The notes under the pieces are model-generated. The model saw nothing but the letters and a program-made list of their open reading frames with translations. It was not told where the DNA came from and did no database searches. A stretch of 64,000 nucleotides of DNA from Moniliella sp. 'wahieum' (lineage: Eukaryota): assembly GCA_003971905.1 (NCBI GenBank), contig RSEE01000032.1, positions 186,001-250,000 of the forward strand. Reading direction: 5' to 3'. Positions 2,210-29,300 of the stretch are shown in pieces. Positions within the stretch are counted from its first letter, which is position 1; every line of letters begins with the position of its first letter. The position numbers and the translations under genes are program-made.

Positions 2210-2773
2210 TCACCACAGCTTCCTCCTCTCGATGCGCTCGGCGTGCTTGATCCGCTGCGCAATCGACCACCGCTTGCGCCGCTCATCATCGACCATGATC
2301 GCGTGCTGACGCGTAGGCCGGGTGGCCGGAGCGACCATACGGATCCAGAGCGGCTTGACGCTGTACATGCGCGCCAGGGCGTAGATGTTGTACTTGACCG
2401 GGTCCGAGGCGCGCAAGCGCTGGATCGCAATGATGTCCGCGGCGGTCAACGGGGTCTGACGCGGGTTCGCCGCCGGTTGCAACGGCTGGGTCTCACGGCG
2501 CGTAGGAGGCGGCAGCGGCGCATCGCCCCCGAGTCGTCCGTGCCCGTCCTGGCATCTTTGCCATCCAGGATCGGGACAGGACCATCGTCGTGCTCTCCGG
2601 CGGCTCCACCGACGGAGGCGGGCGCACCACAAACGTTTCACCCGTCGGCAACCGGCTCCAGCCCGCTCTCTCTTGTCCTCTTCCAGAGGGTCGCGGCTAC
2701 GCCGAACGGGGGTCACATGCGAATGGCGCCCTGCCACGTGCGAGGTAGAGAAGGAACGACGCTGCCCCCCCAT
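2210..2773 (-). CDS. MRPL20: Mitochondrial ribosomal protein mL58 (MRP-L20 family) domain, probably the C-terminal part of a fusion with the upstream SQR
   Basis: LTAADIIAIQRLRASDPVKYNIYALARMYSVKPLWIRMVAP matches the mL58 core as I recall it (LT..DI.EI..LR..DP..W....LA..F......I). FVVRPPPS lies in an adjacent frame, and the ORF ends ERRKLW-TGA at 2210. Confidence 0.8.
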   Translation of the reverse strand: MGGQRRSFSTSHVAGRHSHVTPVRRSRDPLEEDKRERAGAGCRRVKRLWCARLRRWSRRRARRWSCPDPGWQRCQDGHGRLGGDAPLPPPTRRETQPLQPAANPRQTPLTAADIIAIQRLRASDPVKYNIYALARMYSVKPLWIRMVAPATRPTRQHAIMVDDERRKRWSIAQRIKHAERIERRKLW

Positions 2774-2786
2774 CGGAAGGGGAGCG

Positions 2787-4338
2787 TCAAGCTGGCGCGA
2801 GCTGCAGTGTGCATACTGCGGGTGTTCGTCGCGGGGGCCAGCGTCTTGGGGTTAAGCCATCCCTTAGACCCGCCCAGTTGCCCTTGACCATGGAGCTGTA
2901 GTAGACGCGAGGGAAAAATTCCTTCTTCAGGTACCAGAATGCGCGCATGGGCTCGCCTTGGTCGATGCCAAACTTGGCAAACGACTCCTTGGGCTGCCCA
3001 CCGTATTTAAACTCAGCCAAGAGCACTTTACCGTACTCGGTGATGAGCGGGCAAGAGGTATAGCCGTCGTACGCAGCAGGCAGCTCCGTCGTACCGGGGT
3101 TGGCCATGGTGAAGAGCATGTTGGCTACCGTGACAGGCGCTTGGGCGGTAATCGCAGCGGTCGTCTTGGAGGTAGGAAGGGACGAGTCACCAAGCGACCA
3201 AATGTTCTTGTACTTGGTGTGCTGCGTCGTGGCCGGGTCGACATCAACAAACCCGCCCTGTTCAGCGGCAAGAGGGGAGTTCTTGATAAAGTCAAGCGGG
3301 CCCATGGGGGGCGAGACATGCAGCAGATCGTAGGCACGCTCCAACGAACCACCGTCAGGTGGTAAAGGTGGCCACCTTCTTTCCGCATCGATCTTGACAA
3401 GGTTGGTGTTGAACAAACCCTCAACCTGGCGTTCCTTGCGCAGCTCCTCCAAAACCGCACTGTACTTGGGCACACCAAACATCGTTGGCAACCCATCGAG
3501 GAAAGAGACCTTGACACCCTTGGTGGGATCCGACGGCGAGAACTGGCCCGCTCGCTTCCAGTGGTCCAACGCCATCCACATGATCTTTTGCGGGGCTCCG
3601 GCGCATTTGATCACGGCAGCCGGTTGGGTAAAGATAGCCTGGCCCTTGGTGAGCGCCTCAATAGCCGGGAAGACGTGGGGACAGTGTTGTAGCCATAGAT
3701 GCTGACCACACCGGTCTCTTTGGGGTGAGCCAAAGCGTCAGGAAGACCCTCAATGGCATCCCAGTTGGTCTTGATACCAGGAGCAACACCAGCTGCTCGT
3801 AGGTGATCGTGCGACCGTCGCGCGTCTTGATCTCGTTTGTCTCGGGAGCAAAGTGGCGACCGAGTCGGCCAAGTAATCGATTCCGGCCGTCTTGCCAGGC
3901 ACAGCTTCGGTGACAGTGAGTTCCTTCATACTCCGACGACCTTCTCGCGAGTGCGCACACCGCCGCCGACAAGAGTCCAGCCTGGCTGGTAGTCATGGAA
4001 CTCGGCCGGGTCAATCACAAGGATCCGCACGCCGTCCGTGGGAAGTACCCCGACTTGGCGACCTCCTTGGCCACGGCCTGGCCGGCAGTGCCGCCGCCGA
4101 CGACGACGAGACGGTAAGCGTGCTTACGTGCCTCGCCCGCACGCTGGCGGCGGAAAAGGCATCGTCGGCAGCGGTAGTAAGCGTACGGCGCGGGGTGGGC
4201 CGGGGCGCGGAGGGAGGCGGCGGTGGGGTAGGCCAAGGCCGAGGCCGAGCGGAGTGTGCTCAGGCCGCGGGTGAGGGCAAGCGGAGAGCGGCGGGCAGAG
4301 CGGACTGCCAGCTGCAGCGGAACGAGGGATCCAGCCAT
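2787..4338 (-). CDS. hmt2: Mitochondrial sulfide:quinone oxidoreductase (SQR/Hmt2/SQOR); frameshifted; the stop at 2787 is probably artefactual
   Basis: Presequence MAGSLVPLQLAVRSARR, then LVVVGGGTAG, DYQPGWTLVGGG, catalytic-Cys motifs IKCAGAPQKIMW and YDGYTSCPL, LPTSKTTAAI and VLLAEFKYGG. Confidence 0.93.
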
Positions 4339-4829: not shown

Positions 4830-6246
4830 ATGCCCGCCCCAGCCCAGGTCGATGCGGCAGCGCAGACATTTGCCCTGGGCGACTTTGAGCTGCAGAGCGG
4901 AGACGTGCTCAAGGACGCCTACCTGGCATACAAGACGTATGGCCAGCCCTCCAACCCCCTCATCTTCCCCACCTGGTTCACCGGCACACTCACCGAGGTA
5001 CGTGCCTCCTTCTCCCCCCCCCCCATCCCGTCTTCTCACACGTTGGTTCTCCCAGGGCAACGAGTGGCTCATCAGCACCCCTGCCCATCCGCGCCGTGCG
5101 CTGGATCCCGCCAAGTTCTTCATTGTCTCGGTCGCGCTCTTTGGCAACGGCGAGTCGTCCAGTCCGAGCAACACGCCCGGCGCCCAGGCAGGCGCCAACT
5201 TCCCCACACCATGTACGACAATGTGCGTGCGCAGCACCAACTGGTGCGCCACCTGGGCAAGTCCAAGTTGATCGTCGTTGGCTGGTCCATGGGTGCCGGT
5301 CAAACGTTCCAATGGGCGTCGCAGTACCCCGACATGGTGACGCATGCCTTCCCCTTTTGTGGGGCGGCGCGGACGAGCGTGCACAACCAAGTGTTTATTG
5401 ACAGTGTTCGCAAGGCCATCGTGACCGACCAAACGTTTGCTGAAGGCACCTATTCTCCCCATGCCCCTCCTACCAAGGGCCTGGAGGCAATGGGACGGTG
5501 TATGCCGGATGGGGCTTTTCCAGCCGTTTTACCGGGCCCGCCTGTACACCAAGCCGCCGTTTAACTACCCTGACCTCAACGCGTTCCTGGTCAACTTTTG
5601 GGAAAAGTGGGCCACCTCCAAAGACGCCAACAATGTCCTTCGTCATGTATGGACGTGGGCGCATGCCGACATTGGTGCGCAGCCCTTGTACGCCGGCGCA
5701 TCGAAGCGCGACGTGCCACCGTCCCAGGGGGGCGCATGGGAACGTTTGGTGATTTTGGCCCGATCACCGAGCAAGATGATTTGGCTTTCCAGCGCGCACT
5801 CGAAGCGATCCAAGCACGTGTGCTCATTCTGCCCTGTCGCACCGACCTTACTTCCCCCCCGAGGACAGTGAGGCGGAAACCAAGGCGATCCCCCGCGCTG
5901 AGCTCAAGGTCATCGAAAGTATCTTTGGTCATTGGGCGGGGGACCGGGCGATAGTGCGGTGGATGCCAAGTTCCTAGACGATTCGATCTATGACTTTTTG
6001 GCCAAATATGCAGACGAGATTGACTCGCCATACACCCAAGGTGTAAGTACTGTGGTGGACGGTTTGTCCGGGTGGAGTGCTATCCACTCGACGTTTGCTG
6101 GTGCTGTATGGCCCATGATGCATGATACGCCAACGCCGAATGCGTCGCCTGTTCATGCCCACCGTCCTCTTTTTCGTGTGGGTCTGCGCTCGCTTCCTTA
6201 CGTTTTGAATCCTTGCTGTCGCTCAAGTTTCCATCCTCCCGCTTGA
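4830..6246 (+). CDS. Homoserine O-acetyltransferase-like alpha/beta hydrolase (intron 4998-5055; frameshifted; 3' end approximate)
   Basis: LGDFELQSG..L.DA.LAYKTYG, PTWFTG, FGNGESSSPSN, YDNVRAQH, nucleophile elbow GWSMG, YAGWG, and late GHWAGGPG (catalytic His). GTACGT...CAG intron. Confidence 0.85.
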
Positions 6247-15015: not shown

Positions 15016-16315
15016 ATGGCATCCTTACTCCGTACGGCGTTCAGCCGCGCTTCCATCGCCGGCCCCAAGGGGTAAGTCCATCTTGTCTTGTCAGGAATCG
15101 TTGATGCCCGAACGAACGCGGTGGACATGGTCCTGGCTCCCCCTACTCCCCCCTTGCGCAGGAGGTTTGCCTCGTTCGGGTCGAACCGAGTACCCCAATG
15201 TGGGTCCCATTCTTCAACTCGCGTTCTCTTTTTGGAACCTTCCTTTCGATCTCATTGGGAAGGAGGTTTATTGGGGGGGGAGCTGGGAAGGGAAGAACGC
15301 GCGGCGCTCCTTCTGCACGATCTGTCTCAACCCCGGAACAGTCCGCATCCACGTTCAGGCTGAGCTGTGGGCGCATGGTTCCCAGGCAGTGCGGCTAACT
15401 TGCCTTTCTTTTCTCTGTCACAGACTCGGTTTGCCTCGACGGCCAGCAATGCGGCGCAAGCCCAAGCTCCGTTTTGGGCGTCGCGCACCGCAGCGTATAC
15501 CTCTACGGCTGCGGTGGTGGGTGGGATTGCCCTGTACGCCACGACGTTTGGCGAGGCGCCGTTCCTTCCCGCTCTGAGCGCGAACGAGAAGGACGAAGGG
15601 CTGCACCCGACCGCCTACCCTTGGCCTCACCTCGGTCACTTTGAGACGTACGACCATGCCTCGATCCGTCGTGGGTTTCAGGTGTACCGCGAAGTGTGCG
15701 CGTCGTGCCATTCGCTGACGCGGATTGCGTGGCGCAACTTGGTCGGTTTCGCATACTGTCGACGAGGTGAAGGAGATTGCAGCGGACTACGAGTACCAGG
15801 ATGGACCGAACGATGAGGGTGAGATGTTTACCCGGCCGGGTAAGCTGGCCGACTACATTCATGCACCGTACCCGAACGACGAGGCGTCGCGTGCGGCGAA
15901 CCAGGGTGCGCTTCCTCCGGACCTGTCGTTGATGGTCAAGGCGCGCCACTCGGGCGCCGACTACATCTTCTCCCTCTTGACGGGCTATGTCGACCCACCA
16001 GCCGGCGTGCACGTGCCCGAGGGGATGAACTTCAACCCGTACTTCCCTGGCACGCAGATTGGTATGGCGCGGGTGCTGTTTGATGGGCTGGTGGAGTACG
16101 AGGACGGTACACCAGCCACCACGTCGCAGATGGCCAAGGACGTGGTCACGTTCCTCAGCTGGGCCGCTTCGCCCGAGCACGATGAGCGCAAGAAAATGGG
16201 AATGCAGTACATGATCATTGCTTCCACCATGCTTGCTCTCTCCATCTGGGTCAAGAGGTACAAGTGGGCCTCGATCACCAACCGCAGGCTGCAGTACAAC
16301 CCGCCCAAGCACTAA
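15016..16315 (+). CDS. CYT1: Cytochrome c1, complex III (exon 1 15016-15071, intron 15072-15423; indels)
   Basis: Bipartite presequence, GLHPTAYPWPH, DHASIRRGFQVYREVCASCHSL (heme CxxCH), ANQGALPPDLSL, NPYFPG, YEDGTPATTSQMAKDV and a C-terminal TM helix. Intron GTAAGT..GCTAAC..CAG. Confidence 0.98.
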
Positions 16316-18068: not shown

Positions 18069-21000
18069 ATGCAGGCCGACCCGCCACCTGGATCCCACTT
18101 TGTCGGTGCGTACGCAGCACCGCATCCATCCATCCATCCGTCCTCCTCGCTGCTGACTTCCCATCTGTCCCCCCCCAGGCGGCAACCCGGTCGAGACCGC
18201 CACGCCCTCGGCGGTGACCGACTTTGTCAAGCAACATGCTGGCCACTCGGTCATCACCCGCGTCCTCATCTGCAACAACGGCATTGCTGCCGTCAAAGAG
18301 ATCCGCTCCATTCGCAAGTGGGCGTACGAAACGTTCGGACTGGAGCGTGCCATTGAGTTTGTCGTCATGGCCACCCCCGAAGATCTCTCGGTCAACGCCG
18401 AGTACATCCGCATGGCCGACCAATATGTCGAGGTCCCCGGCGGCTCCAACAACAACAACTATGCCAACGTGGACCTTATCGTAGACATTGCCGAGCGCGC
18501 TGGCGTCCATGCAGTCTGGGCTGGCTGGTACGTCACGCATCCTTTTTTCTCCCTTTCCCGCATTGGTTGCTGACATTCAGAACAGGGGCACGCGTCCGAG
18601 AACCCAAGGCTGCCCGAACAGCTGGCAGAGAGCAAGATCATCTTCATTGGGCCCCCAGGCTCTGCGATGCGTTCCCTCGGCGACAAGATCTCCTCTACCA
18701 TTGTTGCCCAACATGCCGATGTGCCGTGCATGCCTTGGTCTGGTTCGGGCATCACCGACACGATCATGTCCGATGCCGGATTCCTCACCGTTTCGGACGA
18801 GGTGTATTCCCGTGCTTGCATTCACTCTGCCGAGGAAGGTATGGCCAAGGCTCAGACATTGGCTACCCCGTCATGATCAAGGCATCCGAGGGAGGTGGCG
18901 GCAAAGGGATCCGCATGTGTACCAAAGAGGAAGACTTTGCCCAGCTGTACACGGCTGTGCTGGGAGAGGTGCCCGGTTCGCCCGTTTTTGTCATGAAGCT
19001 GGCGGGCAAGGCCCGTCACTTGGAAGTTCAACTGCTCGCTGATCAATATGGCAATGCGATCAGCATCTTTGGTCGTGACTGCAGTGTTCAGCGTCGGCAC
19101 CAAAAGATCATTGAGGAAGCCCCCGTCACGATCGCCAACGACGATGCTCGGGAAGAGATGGAGCGGGCGGCGGTCCGACTGGCCAAGCTGGTGGGCTACG
19201 TCTCGGCCGGCACGGTCGAATGGCTCTACTCACCTGAATCGGGCGACTTTTCCTTCCTCGAGCTCAACCCGCGTCTCCAAGTCGAACATCCTACCACCGA
19301 GATGGTATCTGGCGTCAACATCCCCGCCGCCCAGCTCCAGGTCGCGATGGGTATCCCGCTCTACCGTATCCGCGACATCCGCACCCTCTACGGGATGAAC
19401 CCTAAGGGCTCCGAACGGATCGACTTTGACTTTACCGATCCGGCCAGCTACTCCACCCAGCGCAAGCCCCAGCCCAAGGGTCACGTGTTGGCCTGTCGCA
19501 TCACTGCCGAAACCCCGACACGGGCTTCAAGCCCGGCATGGGGGCCCTGACCGAGCTCAACTTCCGTTCGAGTACCTCGACCTGGGGCTACTTCTCGGTC
19601 GCATCCAATGGCGCGCTGCACGAATATGCGGATAGCCAATTCGGTCACGTTTTCGCGTACGGTGCCGATCGGAGTGAAGCACGCAAACAGATGGTCATCT
19701 CCCTCAAGGAACTCTCGATCCGTGGTGACTTCCGTACTACGGTCGAGTACCTCATCAAGCTGCTCGAGACCGATGCGTTCGAGCGCAACACCATCACGAC
19801 CGGGTGGCTTGATGGCCTGATCCAGGACAAGCTCACGGCTGAACGTCCCCCCAAGGAGTTGGCGGTGATTTGCGGTGCGGCGGTCAAGGCGTTCCTGCTT
19901 TCGCAAGAGTCGATTACGGAATACAAGACGATCCTCAACAAGGGCCAAGTGCCTCCGCGCGCAAGCTCAAGACAGTGTTTGCGATCGACTTTATCTACGA
20001 GGGAGAGAAGTTCAACTTTACTGCGATGCAATCTTCGGCCCAAGAGTGGACCTTGTACCTCAACGGTGGCCGGACTCGTGTTTCTCTCCGCCCTCTGTCG
20101 GACGGAGGCTTGCTGGTTGGCCTGGCGGGCAAGTCGCACCCGGTACTGGCGCGAAGAAGTGGGCATGACCCGCCTCATGATCGACAGCAAGACTTGTTTG
20201 ATCGAGCAGGAAAATGACCCGACTCAAATTCGCAGCCCCTCGCCAGGTAAACTGGTTCGCTTCCTCGTCGAGAGCGGGGACCACGTTGTCAGTGGTCAAT
20301 CCATTGCCGAAATTGAGGTGATGAAGATGTATCTACCTCTCACCGCGGCCGAAGACGGGATCGTAACCTTCCTCAAGCAGCCGGGAGTCTCCCTCTCCCC
20401 TGGTGACATCATTGGTATCCTTTCTCTTGACGACCCCAGCCGTGTGCAACACGCCAAGCCATTTGGTTTGGTCTTGTCCGACCAAGGCCTGCCGTCATTA
20501 TTGGCAACAAACCCCACCAGCGGCTCGAGTATTTGGTCAGTACGCTCAACCATGTGCTGGACGGGTTTGATGAATCGTACTTGCTGCATTCGGCGGTGCC
20601 TGAGATGATCGCGTTATTGCGCAACCCCGAACTGCCCTTTAGCCAAGCCAATTCGGTCCTGTCTACCCTGTCGGGCCGCATTCCTGGCAAGTTGCAAGAC
20701 CTGTTGCGCCACAGCATCGACACTGCCCAGAACCGTCATCAGCCTTTCCCTGCCTTGCGTCTACGCAAGCTGAGCGAGAACTTTGTACGGGACCAGGTCC
20801 AAGCGCCGGTCCAAGCACAGATTCTTACCACTCTCAGCCCGCTGTTGGAAGTGTTTGATCAATACACTCGTGGTCTTGAAGCCCACGAGATCTTGGTGCT
20901 GGCCGGCTTTTTGCAAAAGTATTTCGCGGTCGAGTCGCTGTTTGCTGGGGAGGCGACAAGGTCTTGGCCCTGCGTGAGGCTCATCCCGACGACTTGGACA

Positions 21001-24000
21001 AGGTGGTCGCCCTCCAGTATTCCCACAACGGCACGTCTCGTAAGAACGCTTTGATTGTCGGCTTACTGGACAAGTACATCAAGGGGGCTCAGACGGGGTC
21101 AAAGGAGGTGAGCGACAGTGTTAACCAGGTGCTGCTTCAACTGGCCAGCCTTCAATCGAAGGAGACGGCTCCTGTCTCGCTCAAGGCGCGGGAAGTGTCG
21201 ATCGAGGCCAGTCTGCCGTCTCTCAAGGACCGTTCGCATCAGCTGGCTCGCATCCTTCGCACCTCGGTCATGTCCTCCTCCTACGGAGGCACCCGCCGAG
21301 TTCCACGACCCGTCCTGTCGGTGCTGAAAGAGTTGACGGATTCGCCCTATTCAGTGTACGATGTGCTTCCTTCCTTCTTCCACCACCCGAGTACCACCTC
21401 GCCTACGCGTCGTTGGCCACCTACATCCTCCGTGCCTACCGCGCCTATGACATGACCTCGATTGAGTACGACATGGTCGATATCGATGCGGAGGAGCGAG
21501 CGTTGGCCACGTGGCACTTTTCTATCCCCAAGGACGTCAGTGGGTCGGGCCGCTTGCAGCGCACAATGCACCGCACCTCGTCCGAGTCGGACTTTAAGGC
21601 CATGGCGCTTGACAAGCCCGACCAGCTGATCCGTCACGGTGTGATGACCAGCTGCGACTCGCTCGAAGCGCTGACAGAAGCTATGGACCAGGCTTGAAGG
21701 CGTTGACTGCATTTAGCTCCGTTCCTCTCGCTGGCAACGTGATCAACATTGCCATTACGATGCCGACGACATTGACGAGAAGAAGGCGCGGGAGGTGGTG
21801 GTGGCAGTGACGCAGCAGGCTTCCTTGGCCCTGACCAAGGTCAAGGTGAGTCGGGTCACCTACCTCCTGTGCCGCGAGGGGCAGTACCTTTCTTCTCGAC
21901 CGTGCGCCTTCAGCCGGACAACTCGTGGGCGGAGGAGATGCAGATCCGCAACATTGAACCGGCGCTTGCCTACCAACTCGAGCTGGACCGGCTGACGGAG
22001 GAGTTTGAACTACCCGTGTCCCCGTCCTTCGTCGACGATCCACCTGTTTTACGGTCGGGCGTTGAGCAATTCGTCCGACTGTCGCTTCTTTGTTCGCTCG
22101 CTTGTCCGGCCCGGCAAGAGCTCGGGAGACCTGTCCTCCTACCTCATCCACGAGAGTTCCCGCATCGTCAGTGAAATCCTCGATGTGGTGGAGCTGGCAA
22201 TGGGGCAGCCGCAGTACCGCAACGCCGACTCGTCGCACATCTTTATGTCCTTCATTTACAATATGGATGTGACGCTGGACAATGTCAAGGAGGCGGTGAG
22301 CTCGTTTGTGGTGCGGTACGGGGACCGGTTCCAGCGCTTGCGCATCACCTCGGCCGAAGTGCGCATCCCCATCCTGTACGGCGGCAAACACATTCCTCTG
22401 CGTGCCTTTATCACCAACCGCAGTGCCTACTCGGTCCAGTTTGGGTTCTACACGGATTGATGGACCCGATGGGCGTCGTCTGCTGCAATCGCTCAATGAG
22501 CCCGACCAACCAGCTCCTCGGCATGGCCAGTCGGCCTTTGCGCCCCAGTCGGCCAAGGTGGCCTTGCAGAGTCGTCGGTCCCGGGCACATGCTCTCCAGA
22601 CGACGTTTGCCTATGACTTCATCGACGTTCTTCGCCAAGCTCTGCGGACCGGGTGGAAGCGCAGTGGGAAGGCCAACCGTCCGACGGAGCCGATTCGTTG
22701 GTCCACGAACTGGTGCTGAGCCCATCAGGCGAGCTGCAACAAGTGCAGCGCGGTCCCGGGCTCAACAAGATCAGCATGGTGGCCTGGTGGATCGAGATGC
22801 TGACGCCCGAGTACCCCGAGGGACGGGAGATGGTTCTGATTGCCAACGATGTGACGGTTCAAGCTGGCTCGTTTGGCCCGGTGGAAGATCAACTGTTTGC
22901 CGCCGCCTCGCAGCTGGCTCGGGAGCGCGGGGTGCCTCGTCTCTACATCTCGGCCAACTCGGGTGCTCGTATTGGCGTCGCGACGGAGATCCTGGACAAG
23001 TTCAGTGTCAAGTGGACCAACGAGGCGGACCCGGCCAAGGGATGGGTACCTTTATCTTGATGAGGCGATCCAGGCAGAAGTAGAGCGGGACTCGCCAGGG
23101 GCTGTTTGACCCAACCCAAGACGCAGGAGGATGGGTCGGTGCACCACGTTGTTACTGACATCATCGGCCTGTCCAAGAACGGGCTCGGGTCGAGTGTCTG
23201 TCGGGCTCGGGCTTGATTGCTGGCGAGACGAGCCGCGCTCGAGATGAGATCTTTACCGCGACCATTGTCACGGGCCGGTCGGTGGGCATTGGAGCGTACC
23301 TGGCCCGGTTGGGAGACCGCGTGATCCAGGTTACCGGTTCGCCGCTCATCTTAACAGGGTACCAGGCGCTCAACAAACTTCTTGGTCGCGAAGTGTATAC
23401 CTCCAACCTCCAGCTTGGTGGGCCACAGAGTACGTCGCCTTCTCCTCCTCTTTTCCCTGTTTTGCTTTCTGGATTCTGACCCAACTGGTTGACTAGTCAT
23501 GTACCGCAACGGTGTGTCGCACCTGCAGGCCCAAGATGATCTCGAGGCGATGGTCCAAGCGCTCAAGTGGATGAGCTATGTGCCAGCAAAGAAAGGCTTG
23601 TCTCTTCCGCGCTTTGTCAAGGACGACCCGTGGGACCGTGTGATCGACTATGTGCCGCCCAAGGGTCCTTACGATCCCCGCTGGATGCTGGAGGGCAAGA
23701 CGGAGGAAGATGGGACCTACCTCTCTGGCTTCTTTGACAAGGGTTCATGGCAAGAGACGCTGGGCGGGTGGGCTACCTCGGTCGTGGTGGGTCGTGGCCG
23801 TCTGGGGGGCATCCCTATGGGCGCCATTGCCGTTGAAACCCGTACGCTGGAACGGATTGTGCCCGCTGATCCGGCGAATCCCAACTCGCAAGAGCAGCGC
23901 ACCATGGAGGCGGGTCAAGTGTGGTACCCGAACAGTGCGTACAAGACGGCGCAGGCGATCGCCGACTTTAACCGCGAGGGCCTGCCTTTGATCATCTTTG

Positions 24001-24801
24001 CCAACTGGCGCGGCTTCTCGGGCGGGCAGCAGGACATGTTTGATCAAGTGCTCAAGTACGGGTCGTACATTGTGGATGGTTTGACCAACTACCGTCAGCC
24101 GGTGTTTGTCCACATTGCGCCCAATGGTGAGCTTCGGGGCGGTGCGTTTGTTGTGGTCGACTCCAAGATCAACCAGGACGGTCTGATGGAACTGTCGACG
24201 GACGAGACGGCCCGTGGGGGAGTTTTGGAGCCCGAAGGCATGGTGGAGATCAAGGTGCGCGTGCCGCAGCAACGCGCTTGGATGGAACGTTTGGATCCTG
24301 TCTACGGTCAGTTGCGTAGCCTGGGAACGACGGATGCGCACACCAAGCAGCAACTTGCTCAGCGCGAGGAAGAGTTGGCGCCTGTCTTCAACTCGATTGC
24401 GGTCGCCTATGCTGATGCGCACGACAAGGCTGGGCGCATGTACAATGTGGGAGTGGCGCAAGCCGTCTTGTCCTGGCCCGAGTCTCGGCGGTACTTTTAC
24501 CAGCGCTTGCGCCGTCGCCTGGCTGAAGTGACGATGCAAACGCCAGCTCCGGGCGGTAGATGCAACGCTGACGGCGCAGAGCAGCCTAGCCAAGATGTAC
24601 GAGGCTGTGCTCGCCGCTTCCCCTGACATTGACAAGGCGGATGACGCTGCTTTTGCCGATCTGCTCGAGTCGAGCCAGGCTCAGACGGCATTGGCGGCAT
24701 TGGTGACGAACCTGGAAGAAGGCGCCATCTTTGACCGCCTGGCTGCTCTGCCTTCGCATGTGCAGCAGCGCTTGCTGGACAAGTTGGCTACGGTCGAATA
24801 G
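18069..24801 (+). CDS. ACC1: Acetyl-CoA carboxylase (BC-BCCP-central-CT); introns 18106-18178, 18528-18585 and about 23429-23496; many indels
   Basis: [56 protein letters not shown], biotinylation motif [58 protein letters not shown]. Confidence 0.98.
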
Positions 24802-25067: not shown

Positions 25068-26320
25068 CTAGCTTGTGTTTGCCTCACAAAACTCACTTTC
25101 TTGCTTGATCGGCGTCCCTTCGGCCGGCCGGGCCTTAGCTTGGGCGGCCTTCCGCCTGGCCGCCTCTAATGACACGACATAGGTGGCGGGGAACCACCCA
25201 ATCCGGCCATCCCGGGTTCGTCCTTTCCACCATGAACTTTCTTGTCCTGTGGTGGGAAGAGTGTGGACAAGATGGCGACAATGTCGTTGGGCTGCAAGCT
25301 TAGTTCAAGCGGGTCGGAGGCGGAAAAGGCATGGAGGGCACGGACGAAGGTGAGCTTGCTCAGGTCGGGCAAAGACGCCTTCGCTGCATTTGCCTCTGCC
25401 TTTTCGCTTGCGCCGACGCCCGGACCCAACGGATGCGAGCCATGAGTCTCGTGTTCTTGGGGCCTAGACAGTAGACCAAGGTCCAAAGCGGCCTGCAAGC
25501 GTTTCTGTTCTGCCTGTTGGCTAGCGGCAGTGGTGTGCCCCCAGCGTCTCAGGAACCAAGGTGCCCCGATTGCGCACGCCAGCAAGACGAGAAGGGGCTT
25601 TTTGGTGGGACGGGGGGTGGGATCGGCTTGGCTGGCAAGGGCACGGGAAGGCGAATGGGAAGAACCCCCAGCAGCCAATCCCTGGAAGGAGCCCACGTTG
25701 AGCTGTGGAGGCGGCTCGGGCACGCCTAAGCGCGCAAGACGAGCTATCGCCTGTTTGATGCGGCGCAACAAGGTCATTATGCCAAGCATGTTGTCGAGGT
25801 ACGTCCGCAAGTGACCCAGCTGCTCGACAACGTGGACTAGGGCAAGTAAGCTGTTGTGGGCTGTCATCAGCGTGTGGTCCACCATGTGCGAAAGACCACC
25901 CACGGCAGCAACAACACTGCTAATCCTTGCCAGCGTAACTTGCGTCCCCGACTCCATTCGCCGAGTCAGCTGCCCTTGCATGCCGGGCTGGTCCATCACG
26001 CTCCCCATCCCACCGTACGTACCGCCATAGCCGCCCATACCGTACCGCTGCGCATACTCGCCCATCCCTGGGTACGAAGACAGGCCGCCCAAGCTTCCTC
26101 CATAGGACGTGAGACCACCATTATACCCACTTGCTGCAACCCTGCCACCATACTGCTCATGCCCGCCACCAGCCAGTCCTGAAGAGGAGGGTGTGGCGAC
26201 GAGAGAAGCGAGCGCGGCCGACAAGGATGCAGGGCGCTCAACAGACCTGGGTGGCGAAGTGGCACGTCCCTCCGCGGCGGTTGCGGACGGGGGAGCTGAT
26301 GCTGTCGCTTGCCCTGGCAT
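25068..26320 (-). CDS. PEX13: Peroxin 13 (YG-rich N-terminus, Peroxin-13_N helix, TM, C-terminal SH3)
   Basis: YGG/YGMGGYGGTYGGMG repeats, MESGTQ..ISSVV.AVGG..M...TAHNS..VEQLG, TKKPLLVLLACAIGAPW, and SH3 FVRALHAF..ELSL..DIVAIL. After one frameshift it reads WWKGRTRDGRIGWFPATYV, ending at TAG 25068. Confidence 0.88.
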
Positions 26321-29300
26321 TGGAAGCGAGACTGACGGCAGTGCGACAGCGTATTGTGACGTGGATGGTGGAGAAAGGAGTGGTGGAAAGAGCTGTGCAG
26401 CGCTTTGGGGGCAATCTTCCTACTAGTCCTGATCTTCGTGTTGTGCATGAGGAGACAAGCAGATGTGGGAATAGACGATCGTATACATCCTCTCCAATGT
26501 TGAACCATCACTTCAAAGGCTTATTGATCTCGATGGCTCAATTGTCCAATATCAACAGCCTTTGGCGTTTCTGGCTCTGCACTCTTGCAGTATAGCCCGG
26601 CGTTTCCAGACCGCATCAGCCCCTCGGCACTCTATGAAAAAGAGAAGAGAAAGAGAGGCGCACAGCGGAGCATTTGTGTGCATCGGTGTTTGTGCCCTCC
26701 TCTACTTCAATGTGGTGTACTCCCCGTGCCTTGAAAACACAGAGGTTGTCGTTCCCTAAAATACGCCCATCTCTCGCTTCTATATATAGCATGGCCATCG
26801 TACCAGCGCACTGATGTCGATGGGTTGGCGGAGAACCAGCGTCCATTATATGCATTACGGAACAGCACTGGACACCATAAGTTTGTGCTACAGTGTTTGT
26901 ATGTTTTGTACTTCCTGTTACCACCCAGCTTGCGCGCTATTCACGCTCTGATCGACCTATTAAGCTCAGAGCTCTCAGCCCCATGTTGAGCCGGCTGCGC
27001 TCCGCTTGAAACCGTCAGGTATTAGCTCTCGCTCGCTCGTCTCTGTGTGCGTCCCCCCGGTGTAACTCTAGCAAATGCACAATGCTCACTGCACCGTGCC
27101 CCTCTCCTAAAGTCAGTTGAGGGTACCCAATAAATCCCACAGTGAAAGCATAAGTTTGTCCTTGGTGCGGTAAAGCTTTAGTTGGTCGCATCCGAGTATA
27201 GGCGACAGTAAAAACACACCGAGAGGAAAAGTCAAGTGATCGAGACTTTGGAGCAAAAATGTCTATACTTAGTAGTTGATGCGTTCCCTTGCTGAAGGAG
27301 GAGTGGAATAGAGGATGTGGCTCTGAGAGGTACAGGAGGCTATGAGAAGGGTAGGGCCTTATATAGACGAGGGTACCGCGGAGCTGAGGAAGCTTCCGGG
27401 CGGAAAGAGAGGGGTGATGACTATCACGCACAGGATGGCGTGATTGGGGCATCGCCCCAACATCCCTAACTTGTAGGGACTGCTTCCACCCTGTCCCCCT
27501 TTCTGCATGAGCCTCAATATCTCAATCCCATCCGTGCACGCCTTTAGGGCAAACGACTTGGTGGTCTGCCGTGTTCTTGCGTTTATCCCGCCCTTTTAGA
27601 CCCATGTCCACCCTCAAAGTTCTGAATGGCCTGTTACCAACAGCATCACATCAGCCGCACAGCATATGGAAGATGGAGACCACATTTGGGCATCGGGATC
27701 TTCATCAGGTGCATGTGGTTGAAGTTCAACGTCAACCAACTTACACTGCTGTTTGCCCCATACGCGGTGATGCTATACGAATACTGTGGCAGAGATATAT
27801 GGGGCCGCACCACCGCGTTGCGCATGTGGTGGTTGTTACGTTGATCACATTAATCGCATGGTTCTACCGTTGTGATAATGATTCGGGACGGCGGGGGTGT
27901 ACGGACTGTCATTCACAGATCACACACCCCCTCATGTGTTCCCATACACGCGCCCCGCGTGTATCCTGTACTCTGTTGGTGTGAGAATCGGTCTCACAAT
28001 ATACTTCTGTATCTTAGTAGTGCTCGTATGTCATTTGCAACTAAAAGGCTCAATAGGGAAACTATAACTTCGGAAATGTTGCGCCTCTATACCGGATACC
28101 ACTGGGTTCACTCATCGCCTCTTTCACTACCTCGTGCCAAAAGCCAACAACCAAAAGACCAGTGGTGTCGCCCGCAACAGGACCGGAATCCTCAGCTGGG
28201 TTCCCGCGATTCCCTTCTCCACCAAAGGTAGTAGTGCGAGTGGATACAGAATGTGGATGGTAGATACATGGGAACGACGAGAAAACCACCTCCGAAGCTC
28301 AACATTCTGCACACAGTATGTGTGATTTTCTCCATATAGCTTCCACCGTGCTCCACACCTTGTTGGCAGTCTTGGTGGCATAGTCACTACCCCCCGCAGC
28401 ATGCGTCTCATTATATATGATGTTGAACAGAGGGAAGAAGAGCTCCGGAACGCGCCGCTTATACTTGGCGTTCTTGTGGCATTCTCCGTTTTTTGTCTTC
28501 CATAGCCCCCATGCAGCTTTTCTTCGCCCGGCCCTCCACAGGAGCGTCTCACTCTGCCATCTTCTCTCCTGTTCTCTTCCTCATGTACCACGTCTAGAAT
28601 TACATCAGCGGTACACAACCTTGCTGAGGGCTGAGGGATTGTGGGCGTCTGGAATCATAATCAACAGAGCGTTAGGTGACCATACAGATGATGTCCTTGG
28701 ACGTTTTCAACAAGGATTGACGATATTATTTTTGACCTTTAACTCCATCTACTACGTTTGCACTCGGTTATACTCGCGATAAAATAGCCTACCATCATAA
28801 GCCCAAGTCGGGTAATGAAGATCGACGATGATTAATGTTGCACGTTGATCTCGTCGATCATCGAGATCATTCTCTCCCGTAAACAAAAGTTTGGAAATGG
28901 GAGGGAGCGAGGAAGAACGTTGGCCCGCTTGTACATAGCGGTTAGCTCCATGCGGCCATACGGCAACCCTTTTGGGCACATGTTATTTTTTGCCACACGG
29001 ACCGAGTGATGCCTTCAAAACATTATACTCGCGTTATTGATCATTGATCCACTCCCGAAACGTGCTGACATCCGTCATCCTCAACGTCAACACTCAGTCA
29101 AAGATGATATGCATTTTAACGCTGAAGCTGTGAAGAGAAAGAGAGAAGGTGATTCATCTCTGAGTTATATACAGCACTACACAAGGTTACCGGTTATACA
29201 CAACCTGCAAGCTCATTATGTACCACTAGTAAAGGCTCGTTTTGTGTATAGTGTTGTAGCCACATGGCTGTGTGACATCACGTCTTTGATGTCATATGCA

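Follow-up and report, generated by a model that had tools for sequence, protein, structure and literature searches.

A fused gene for sulfide:quinone oxidoreductase and the mitoribosomal protein mL58 as a candidate tandem mitochondrial precursor of Ustilaginomycotina-type fungi

The contig RSEE01000032.1 of Moniliella sp. 'wahieum' (assembly GCA_003971905.1) was analysed over the 64,000 nucleotides from position 186,001 to 250,000, here called the window, and at 4338..2210 on the minus strand it carries the coding sequences of a sulfide:quinone oxidoreductase (SQR) and of the mitoribosomal protein mL58 (positions count from the first letter of the window). In the assembly as deposited, the SQR reading frame, 3737..2787 (-), closes with a TGA at 2789-2787, and a second frame, opened by an ATG at 2773-2771 (-), carries the match to MRP-L20/mL58 and closes with a TGA at 2212-2210. 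Only the 13 nucleotides 2786..2774 lie between this TGA and the ATG on the same strand, exactly as given in the preliminary description of the locus, and a run of seven G at 2771-2765 overlaps the ATG. That description had proposed that adding one C at about 2868 and one G to the run would turn the two frames into one gene. We aligned P0149 (772 amino acids, the closest uninterrupted relative; related proteins carry P numbers throughout) to the minus strand of the window with a frameshift-tolerant dynamic programme. Identity amounts to 568 of 697 positions (81%) over a colinear match that extends from the ATG at 4338 to the final codon at 2213 and is uninterrupted except for 12 frame breaks at 4215, 4145, 4038, 3949, 3854, 3789, 3682, 2867, 2772, 2671, 2576 and 2523. 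All but one of the 12 behave as a single missing base. A short mismatched stretch at about 3370-3390 suggests an extra, compensating pair of breaks; besides the breaks, the fused gene holds no in-frame stop. Both proposed repairs are thus matched by a break, at 2867 and at 2772. The added C was meant to restore a proline; at the 2867 break, the two closest relatives have Ala and most others Pro. Ten breaks come on top of these two repairs, three of them inside the mL58 part and not mentioned before.

The same kind of damage is found in other genes of the window. The acetyl-CoA carboxylase gene at 18157-24623 (+), with Biotin_carb_N, CPSase_L_D2, Biotin_carb_C, ACCA_BT, Biotin_lipoyl, ACC_central and Carboxyl_trans domains, is spread over many overlapping open reading frames (ORFs) in different frames, although its Pfam profile coordinates are contiguous; positions 23-179, 182-328 and 329-432 of ACC_central, for example, fall in three overlapping ORFs, each in another frame. 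In the cytochrome c1 gene at 15364-16312 (+), two overlapping ORFs in different frames share the profile, with positions 1-45 in one and 43-218 in the other, a split that would be a frameshift or possibly an intron. Acetyl-CoA carboxylase is normally indispensable, and errors of one missing base are typical of the consensus in draft long-read assemblies. Because both genes are broken likewise, we read the stop and restart at 2787/2773 and the other breaks as one-base assembly errors and not as signs of a pseudogene, the two indels at the junction being placed by homology. The earlier impression of one-base deletions all over the window therefore holds well beyond the junction. In this organism the gene is very probably one fused ORF. 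We rejected programmed frameshifting at the G7 run, since identical one-base breaks occur across the gene and in other genes.

Read through its breaks, the gene starts with the codon 4336..4338 (-), where the P0149 alignment begins. The first part, 4160..4338 (-), comprises about 58 codons without Asp or Glu, is rich in Arg, Ser, Ala and Leu and contains the break at 4215. In the read-through protein, only one acid-free stretch is longer than residues 1-58, and by its composition this N-terminal region would be a targeting signal. The break at 4145 (-) lies between it and the body of a type II SQR at 2857..4125 (-), which runs from the dinucleotide-binding motif K-H-A-Y-R-L-V-V-V-G-G-G-T-A-G to the end W-A-G-x-K-G-W and includes the breaks at 4038, 3949, 3854, 3789 and 3682 together with the probable compensating pair. 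The next break, 2867 (-), with one base missing, falls within W-A-G-x-K-G-W. It creates the frame in which the TGA at 2787..2789 (-) appears; this stop is not real, the correct frame being open here.

The identity of the first domain rests on homology searches, since a Pfam scan of the SQR pieces of the window returned no family at E <= 0.01. The 316-residue SQR frame matches fungal SQRs at E 1e-104 to 1e-135, and residues 136-558 of P0149 match human SQOR (6oi5) at E 1.7e-75. The window contains the motifs G-G-G-T-A-G, K-C-A-G-A-P-Q-K and Y-T-S-C-P-L. The cysteines of the latter two, encoded at 3605-3603 and 3053-3051 (-), are C260 and C446, both invariant in 58 of 58 fused relatives and both presumably catalytic (redox) residues.

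The second domain, mL58 (MRP-L20, PF12824), occupies 2213..2704 (-), from R-R-S-R-D-P-L to the C-terminal R-R-K-L-W, with the breaks 2671, 2576 and 2523, and is followed by the TGA stop of the fused gene at 2210..2212 (-), which is supported by the P0149 alignment and by the reading of the frame. The mL58 piece of the window matches PF12824 at E 3.6e-17 with 63.5 bits (cut-off 30.4) over profile positions 72-164, and the P0149 alignment places the N-terminal part that is missing from this match in another frame. In the fused relatives the match takes in profile positions 2-4 to 164, starts right behind the linker and has E values of 1e-20 to 1e-28. According to the accessible text of PMC7947838, PF12824 also matches mS22/'mS45', a confusion that is flagged there, and the C-terminal piece of the window was therefore compared with the PDB. 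The search gave yeast mL58 (5mrc_a, 1.1e-6; 3j6b_a, about 1e-6) and the YmL20-related protein of Neurospora (6ywe_a, 0.0071). Up to E 10 the ribosomal matches were mL58/YmL20 chains only, with no small-subunit protein. The ending R-R-K-L-W is common to the window and to these PDB matches.

Between the two domains lies a linker of about 51 residues at 2705..2856 (-). It holds no Asp or Glu, as already described, and read through the breaks it aligns residue by residue with the homologous linkers of P0149 and P0121, far above chance. Together with the next four codons, R-R-S-R, it amounts to 55 residues with 10 Lys+Arg, and it sits inside an acid-free stretch of 76 residues, the longest of the protein. 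A proximal cleavage-like motif, R-S-M-H-T at 2806..2820 (-), is conserved in the clade of the window. The G7 homopolymer with its missing base follows at 2765..2771 (-), where P0149 reads F-Q-G-Q-R-R-S-F-S-T-S without any Met. The distal motif R-R-S-F-S-T-S, 2741..2761 (-), is by homology and conservation a predicted site of the mitochondrial processing peptidase (MPP), with Arg at -2 and the aromatic residue at +1. An intron in the linker was rejected: the lone GT...AG pair noted by eye spans only about 14 nucleotides, and the ORFs of the relatives are uninterrupted.

How far these features are shared was examined with 65 proteins in which the end of SQR and the start of mL58 are both present; 61 have at least 595 residues. 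Their linkers are 18-58 residues long (median 45), the mL58 domain beginning just 18-20 residues past the SQR end in Malassezia-type proteins. Asp and Glu make up 1.4% of the linkers compared to 9.5% elsewhere, Lys and Arg 14%, and Ser and Thr 29%. Among 62 full-length proteins, with the read-through of the window included, the acid-free stretch that spans the linker is always one of the two longest and in 44 the longest; the other is usually the N-terminus. Both cleavage-like motifs reported earlier hold up in this comparison. The distal type is found in all 65 linkers as R.[FY].[ST] and in 61 of them as R.[FYL][SA]; at least two such motifs occur in 39. The last R.[FY] motif stands a median of 12 residues (range 12-24) ahead of the R-x-x-R-D-P-L start of the Pfam domain. 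In an alignment of 58 sequences its Arg is invariant (58/58), and the Phe and the following Ser are at least 90% conserved, which is on par with the catalytic cores. The proximal type, R-x-(L/M/F/I)-H-(T/S), is conserved in the window, P0149, P0121, P0150, P0152, P0153 and P0012 and is absent from the short Malassezia-type linkers.

A second comparison concerns the mL58 proteins that stand alone. P0137, P0138 and P0143 have an N-terminal presequence of 20-30 residues that ends in R-G-Y-A, R-T-Y-A and R-G-F-V, respectively, a few residues ahead of K-D-P and the conserved block F-I-H-R-P-P-P-(T/S), at the same distance as the motif of the fused proteins. Because the same motif occurs at the same place, the internal, distal element R-x-F/Y-(S/A)-T-S is, on this homology, the retained end of the ancestral mL58 presequence. 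Met is absent from 44 of the 65 linkers, so that mL58 has no ATG of its own in them, and the Met of the window aligns with Leu, Phe or Ile of its relatives.

The fusion itself is widespread. A search with the SQR fragment, confined to proteins of comparable length, returned for the most part ascomycete SQRs of about 450 residues, which end 1-3 residues past G-P-x-G-W; P0012 (466 residues), on the other hand, is an ORF that leads from the C-terminal half of SQR via the linker into a complete mL58. A phmmer search with the mL58 end of the window against 1.84 billion representatives gave 24 matches. By far the best was P0121 (730 residues; 72% identity, with the match at residues 629-730), and P0134 (660 residues) and P0012 are likewise fused. 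Of 120 listed SQR relatives longer than 553 residues, 63 carry PF12824, so the Pyr_redox_2 plus MRP-L20 architecture that had been suggested as a search target does exist in basidiomycetes. All 27 PF12824-bearing SQRs with a species name on this list come from Ustilaginomycotina, and none of the listed long SQRs named from other groups (Aspergillus, Aureobasidium, Colletotrichum, Fusarium, Wallemia, agarics) carries the family. The fused proteins stem from Ustilago (hordei, nuda, tritici, loliicola, trichophora and sp.), Sporisorium (three species), Melanopsichium, Moesziomyces, Pseudozyma (two species), Thecaphora, Testicularia, Violaceomyces, Tilletiaria, Ceraceosorus, Jaminaea, Parajaminaea, Sympodiomycopsis and Malassezia (seven labels). 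A taxonomy look-up of five genera gave Ustilaginomycetes, Exobasidiomycetes and Malasseziomycetes, and the remaining genera we take to belong to Ustilaginomycotina as well. At the level of the sequences compared, the fusion is shown to be conserved across three classes of this subphylum.

In P0149, P0121 and the 27 named Ustilaginomycotina proteins, SQR, linker and mL58 lie in uninterrupted single ORFs of 600-772 residues. The opposite outcome, separate and well-spaced genes in relatives, had been named beforehand as the observation that would speak against a fusion. P0149, P0121 and P0001 share 84%, 80% and 72% identity with the SQR fragment of the window. In a tree of the SQR part, built from 53 sequences (30 named, 22 others and the window, the other fused proteins being omitted), the window groups with these three and adjoins the Tilletiaria clade.

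Taken together, we propose that 4338..2210 (-) is one intron-less nuclear gene of an Ustilaginomycotina-type basidiomycete, and that it encodes a four-part tandem mitochondrial precursor, in the order N-terminal presequence, type II SQR, acid-free presequence-like linker and mL58, which is cleaved after import. We give this reading a probability of roughly 0.65. The precursor would be imported via its N-terminal signal, and MPP would cut at the N-terminus and at the internal R-x|F, after which Icp55-type trimming would probably take off the Phe. In lineages with two motifs the spacer would be excised, as in yeast Atp25. SQR would remain at the inner membrane, extended by a short C-terminal tail, mL58 would be freed to the ribosome, and the expression of both proteins would be coupled. 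That the product is cut at the conserved motif appears quite probable.

These import and cleavage steps are drawn by analogy from two yeast precedents, each described here as in the accessible text of its source. In Arg5,6, an internal stretch that resembles a presequence holds the site cut by MPP, R-S-Y or R-G-Y, and Icp55 trims the product afterwards (PMC8734313). Atp25 loses an internal targeting signal through two cuts by MPP, at sites of the form R-[AFR]-[FLY]|[AKLS]-[HSTQ] (PMC5063612).

Several observations weigh against this proposal. Conservation of the motif is compatible with cleavage and falls short of proving it. In 4 of the 65 linkers M, T or V follows the aromatic residue instead of S or A, and 21 linkers, that of the window included, do contain a Met. 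Within the clade of the window, the ORF of P0001 (495 residues; with P0147 and P0148 one of three identical cluster members) ends eight residues into the linker, after I-N-P-K-S-L-L-P, which may be due to a stop, an intron, a fission or an assembly frameshift. Furthermore, P0130 (226 residues) is a stand-alone mL58 with the N-terminal motifs of the Ustilaginomycotina type and its own Met-initiated presequence, and the fusion is hence not universal among relatives of this type of mL58. Finally, a metagenome scan with the fused alignment gave 593 pattern-matched stretches, 590 of which proved to be SQR relatives. From these the best 80 loci were retained, most of them bacterial-type SQRs with about 40% identity, and a tblastn search of the 80 with seven mL58 parts gave no mL58 match. 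Two fungal-type loci among them (L001 and L002) have an SQR ORF that ends directly past W-x-G-P-x-G and are thus unfused outgroups. As the scan yielded no fused locus, the support at the DNA level rests on ORF calls from unannotated contigs.

Among the alternatives, the one that survives best is that the fused protein is imported and stays wholly or partly uncleaved, so that mL58, and the membrane-facing mitoribosomal protuberance along with it, is held at the membrane by a covalent bond to the anchored SQR. Human SQOR is reportedly anchored by C-terminal amphipathic helices, as the structure papers have it. In the fused proteins the SQR end leads straight into mL58, in the Malassezia type after the very short linker mentioned above, and the order is always SQR and then mL58. 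In yeast, according to the accessible text of PMC7947838 (citing Amunts 2014) and PMC11345376, mL58 belongs to the membrane-facing protuberance together with mL44 and mL57, and the three form an early assembly nucleus that is linked to membrane tethering. From a membrane-facing mL58 and a membrane-anchored SQR it follows that an uncleaved fraction could tether the ribosome. Against this stands the highly conserved R-x-F-(S/A)-T-S at the place homologous to the cleavage region of stand-alone mL58, for which continued cleavage is the simplest explanation; a covalent 1:1 bond would, in addition, tie the amount of the enzyme to the number of ribosomes. We therefore regard an uncleaved product as unlikely. 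That an uncleaved or late-cleaved fraction nucleates the assembly of the large subunit, or tethers the ribosome at the inner membrane, is a doubtful idea at rather long odds. If true, however, it would mean that a covalent membrane anchor between an enzyme and the ribosome has been kept in a whole fungal subphylum.

Still more improbable, in our view, are two independent products from the one continuous ORF, with mL58 made from an mRNA of its own (by an internal promoter or alternative splicing) or by internal initiation, and the linker serving as an ordinary presequence. The distal part of the linker does resemble a complete presequence end, the minority of linkers with a Met includes that of the window with its M-H-T-A-A-R, and the ORFs or models P0123 and P0124 begin inside the linker. 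Rice RPS14, where alternative splicing acts around a nested mitoribosomal gene, offers a precedent as far as the accessible text of PMC8734313 goes. Yet the majority of linkers is Met-free and the Met of the window is replaced in relatives, and all 65 proteins read through the junction in frame, something that two separate products would not call for. The fused ORFs on Logan and ENA contigs are, moreover, uninterrupted. Since they are so, and since P0149 reads on upstream of the true start, we take them as calls made without intron modelling.

A decaying pseudogene, in which the frame breaks including the junction stop are real, would account for at least 12 breaks in 2.1 kilobases. This is very improbable: 11 of the 12 are of one type, the acetyl-CoA carboxylase and cytochrome c1 genes of the window are broken likewise, and the gene has kept all invariant catalytic residues and its 81% identity to P0149 over the full length, with no in-frame stops besides the breaks. 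That the fusion is an artefact of annotation or assembly, in which predictors merged adjacent genes, is hardly credible, for although some long SQR models look merged (POP1 and SQR in Wallemia, PF09402 and SQR in agarics) and smut models disagree with each other (P0159 lacks part of the linker, P0191 is frameshifted), the junction is kept at the level of residues in 65 proteins from NCBI, JGI, ENA and Logan, and the ORFs on the unannotated contigs of P0121, P0149, P0134 and P0153 are uninterrupted.

Returning to the tandem precursor, we compared it with the systems described so far. The known examples, as listed in the accessible text of PMC8734313, are Arg5,6, Atp25, Etp1, Rsm22-Cox11, SPAC22A12.08c and rice RPS14; SQR-mL58 is not in this list. 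As in Arg5,6 and Atp25, one ORF delivers two mitochondrial proteins that are connected by an acid-poor, presequence-like joint, and the linker carries the R-x-aromatic motif of the kind cut by MPP in Arg5,6 (R-S-Y, R-G-Y), again within the accessible parts of PMC8734313 and PMC5063612. The linkers with two motifs resemble the excised internal signal of Atp25, where one passenger, Rsf, is ribosome-associated too, as mL58 is here. The differences lie in the partners, an H2S-oxidising flavoenzyme and a structural protein of the mitoribosome with no functional relation to each other, in the limitation to Ustilaginomycotina, and in the Malassezia-type linkers, which are far shorter than a typical internal targeting signal.

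The rice SDHB/RPS14 chimera depends on alternative splicing; SQR-mL58 shows no intron, and its mL58 has preserved its own presequence end. In S. pombe Rsm22-Cox11 the ribosomal partner is N-terminal, whereas mL58 is C-terminal. What these two systems have in common with the proposed SQR-mL58 precursor, judged by the accessible text of PMC8734313 and PMC5063612, is that a mitoribosomal protein and a protein related to the respiratory chain share one precursor and are then separated.

Proteins with the same order of PF07992 and then PF12824, a homologous linker and the motifs are already present in the databases, at 59-68% identity to the SQR fragment of the window. They include the 'FAD/NAD(P)-binding domain-containing protein' of Tilletiaria anomala UBC 951 (P0150, 690 residues), entries of Ustilago hordei and Sporisorium named 'related to sulfide:quinone oxidoreductase', and the '54S ribosomal protein L20, mitochondrial' of Pseudozyma hubeiensis (P0169). 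A full-text literature search found no description of a fusion of SQR with mL58 or L20; the work of Leonard and Richards (2012) on fungal gene fusions, which may be relevant, was outside its reach. Two papers on H2S in Ustilago maydis (PMC13266210; bioRxiv 10.1101/2025.03.13.642974) mention SQR, and the word 'ribosomal' appears in the accessible text of neither. That no characterised precursor of this kind was known to the author of the earlier description agrees with the literature found, with the qualification that the architecture is annotated, unremarked, in many genomes. SQR-mL58 is therefore an uncharacterised addition to the known class of tandem mitochondrial precursors.

Combinations of one of the two partners with other domains also came up in the searches. 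Long SQR models of Aspergillus spp. (P0155-P0158, P0162 and P0163; 655-665 residues) include a rhodanese domain (PF00581). This domain is N-terminal in P0155, where the presequence-like stretch of SQR with its R-G-F-A thereby becomes internal; this is either a second possible SQR tandem precursor or a merged gene model. In P0151 of Asterophora parasitica (428 residues), a GST-like protein with its own presequence is joined to a complete mL58, and the junction holds R-T-Y-T-S. Here, too, the choice is between another mL58 tandem, in an agaric, and a merged gene model. Long SQR models of Wallemia (P0223, P0228 and P0229) and of agarics and Rhizoctonia (P0231, P0232, P0243 and P0247) are joined to POP1 or PF09402, none of them to mL58, and are probably adjacent genes merged by predictors. 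Of the neighbouring genes in the window, an alpha/beta-hydrolase gene (Abhydrolase_1) at 4830-6000 (+), likewise in several frames, lies divergent from the SQR-mL58 gene about 490 base pairs from its start codon, and an ORF at 25169-26419 (-) encodes a Peroxin-13 N-terminal domain (PF04088, E 4e-27).

In summary, we describe a gene in which SQR and mL58 are fused and whose product would be separated by cleavage at a conserved internal motif. For this assembly, the comparison reveals apparent stops and overlaps as one-base consensus errors. For genome annotation it matters that the fused gene is labelled SQR or 'L20' depending on the genome, so that mL58 or SQR can seem to be missing in inventories. 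A knock-out of 'the SQR gene' in these fungi would also delete a mitoribosomal protein, which bears on the H2S work in smuts. The linkers, with their 18-58 residues and one or two R-x-F motifs, are natural variants that provide material on what MPP needs at an internal site, and the fusion may serve as a rare-genomic-change marker for Ustilaginomycotina. It is remarked in the accessible text of PMC5063612 that the majority of tandem precursors supply mitoribosomal proteins, and SQR-mL58 extends this remark. Natural tandem mitochondrial precursors are few, and this one spans three classes of Ustilaginomycotina, including the cereal smuts and the skin yeast Malassezia.

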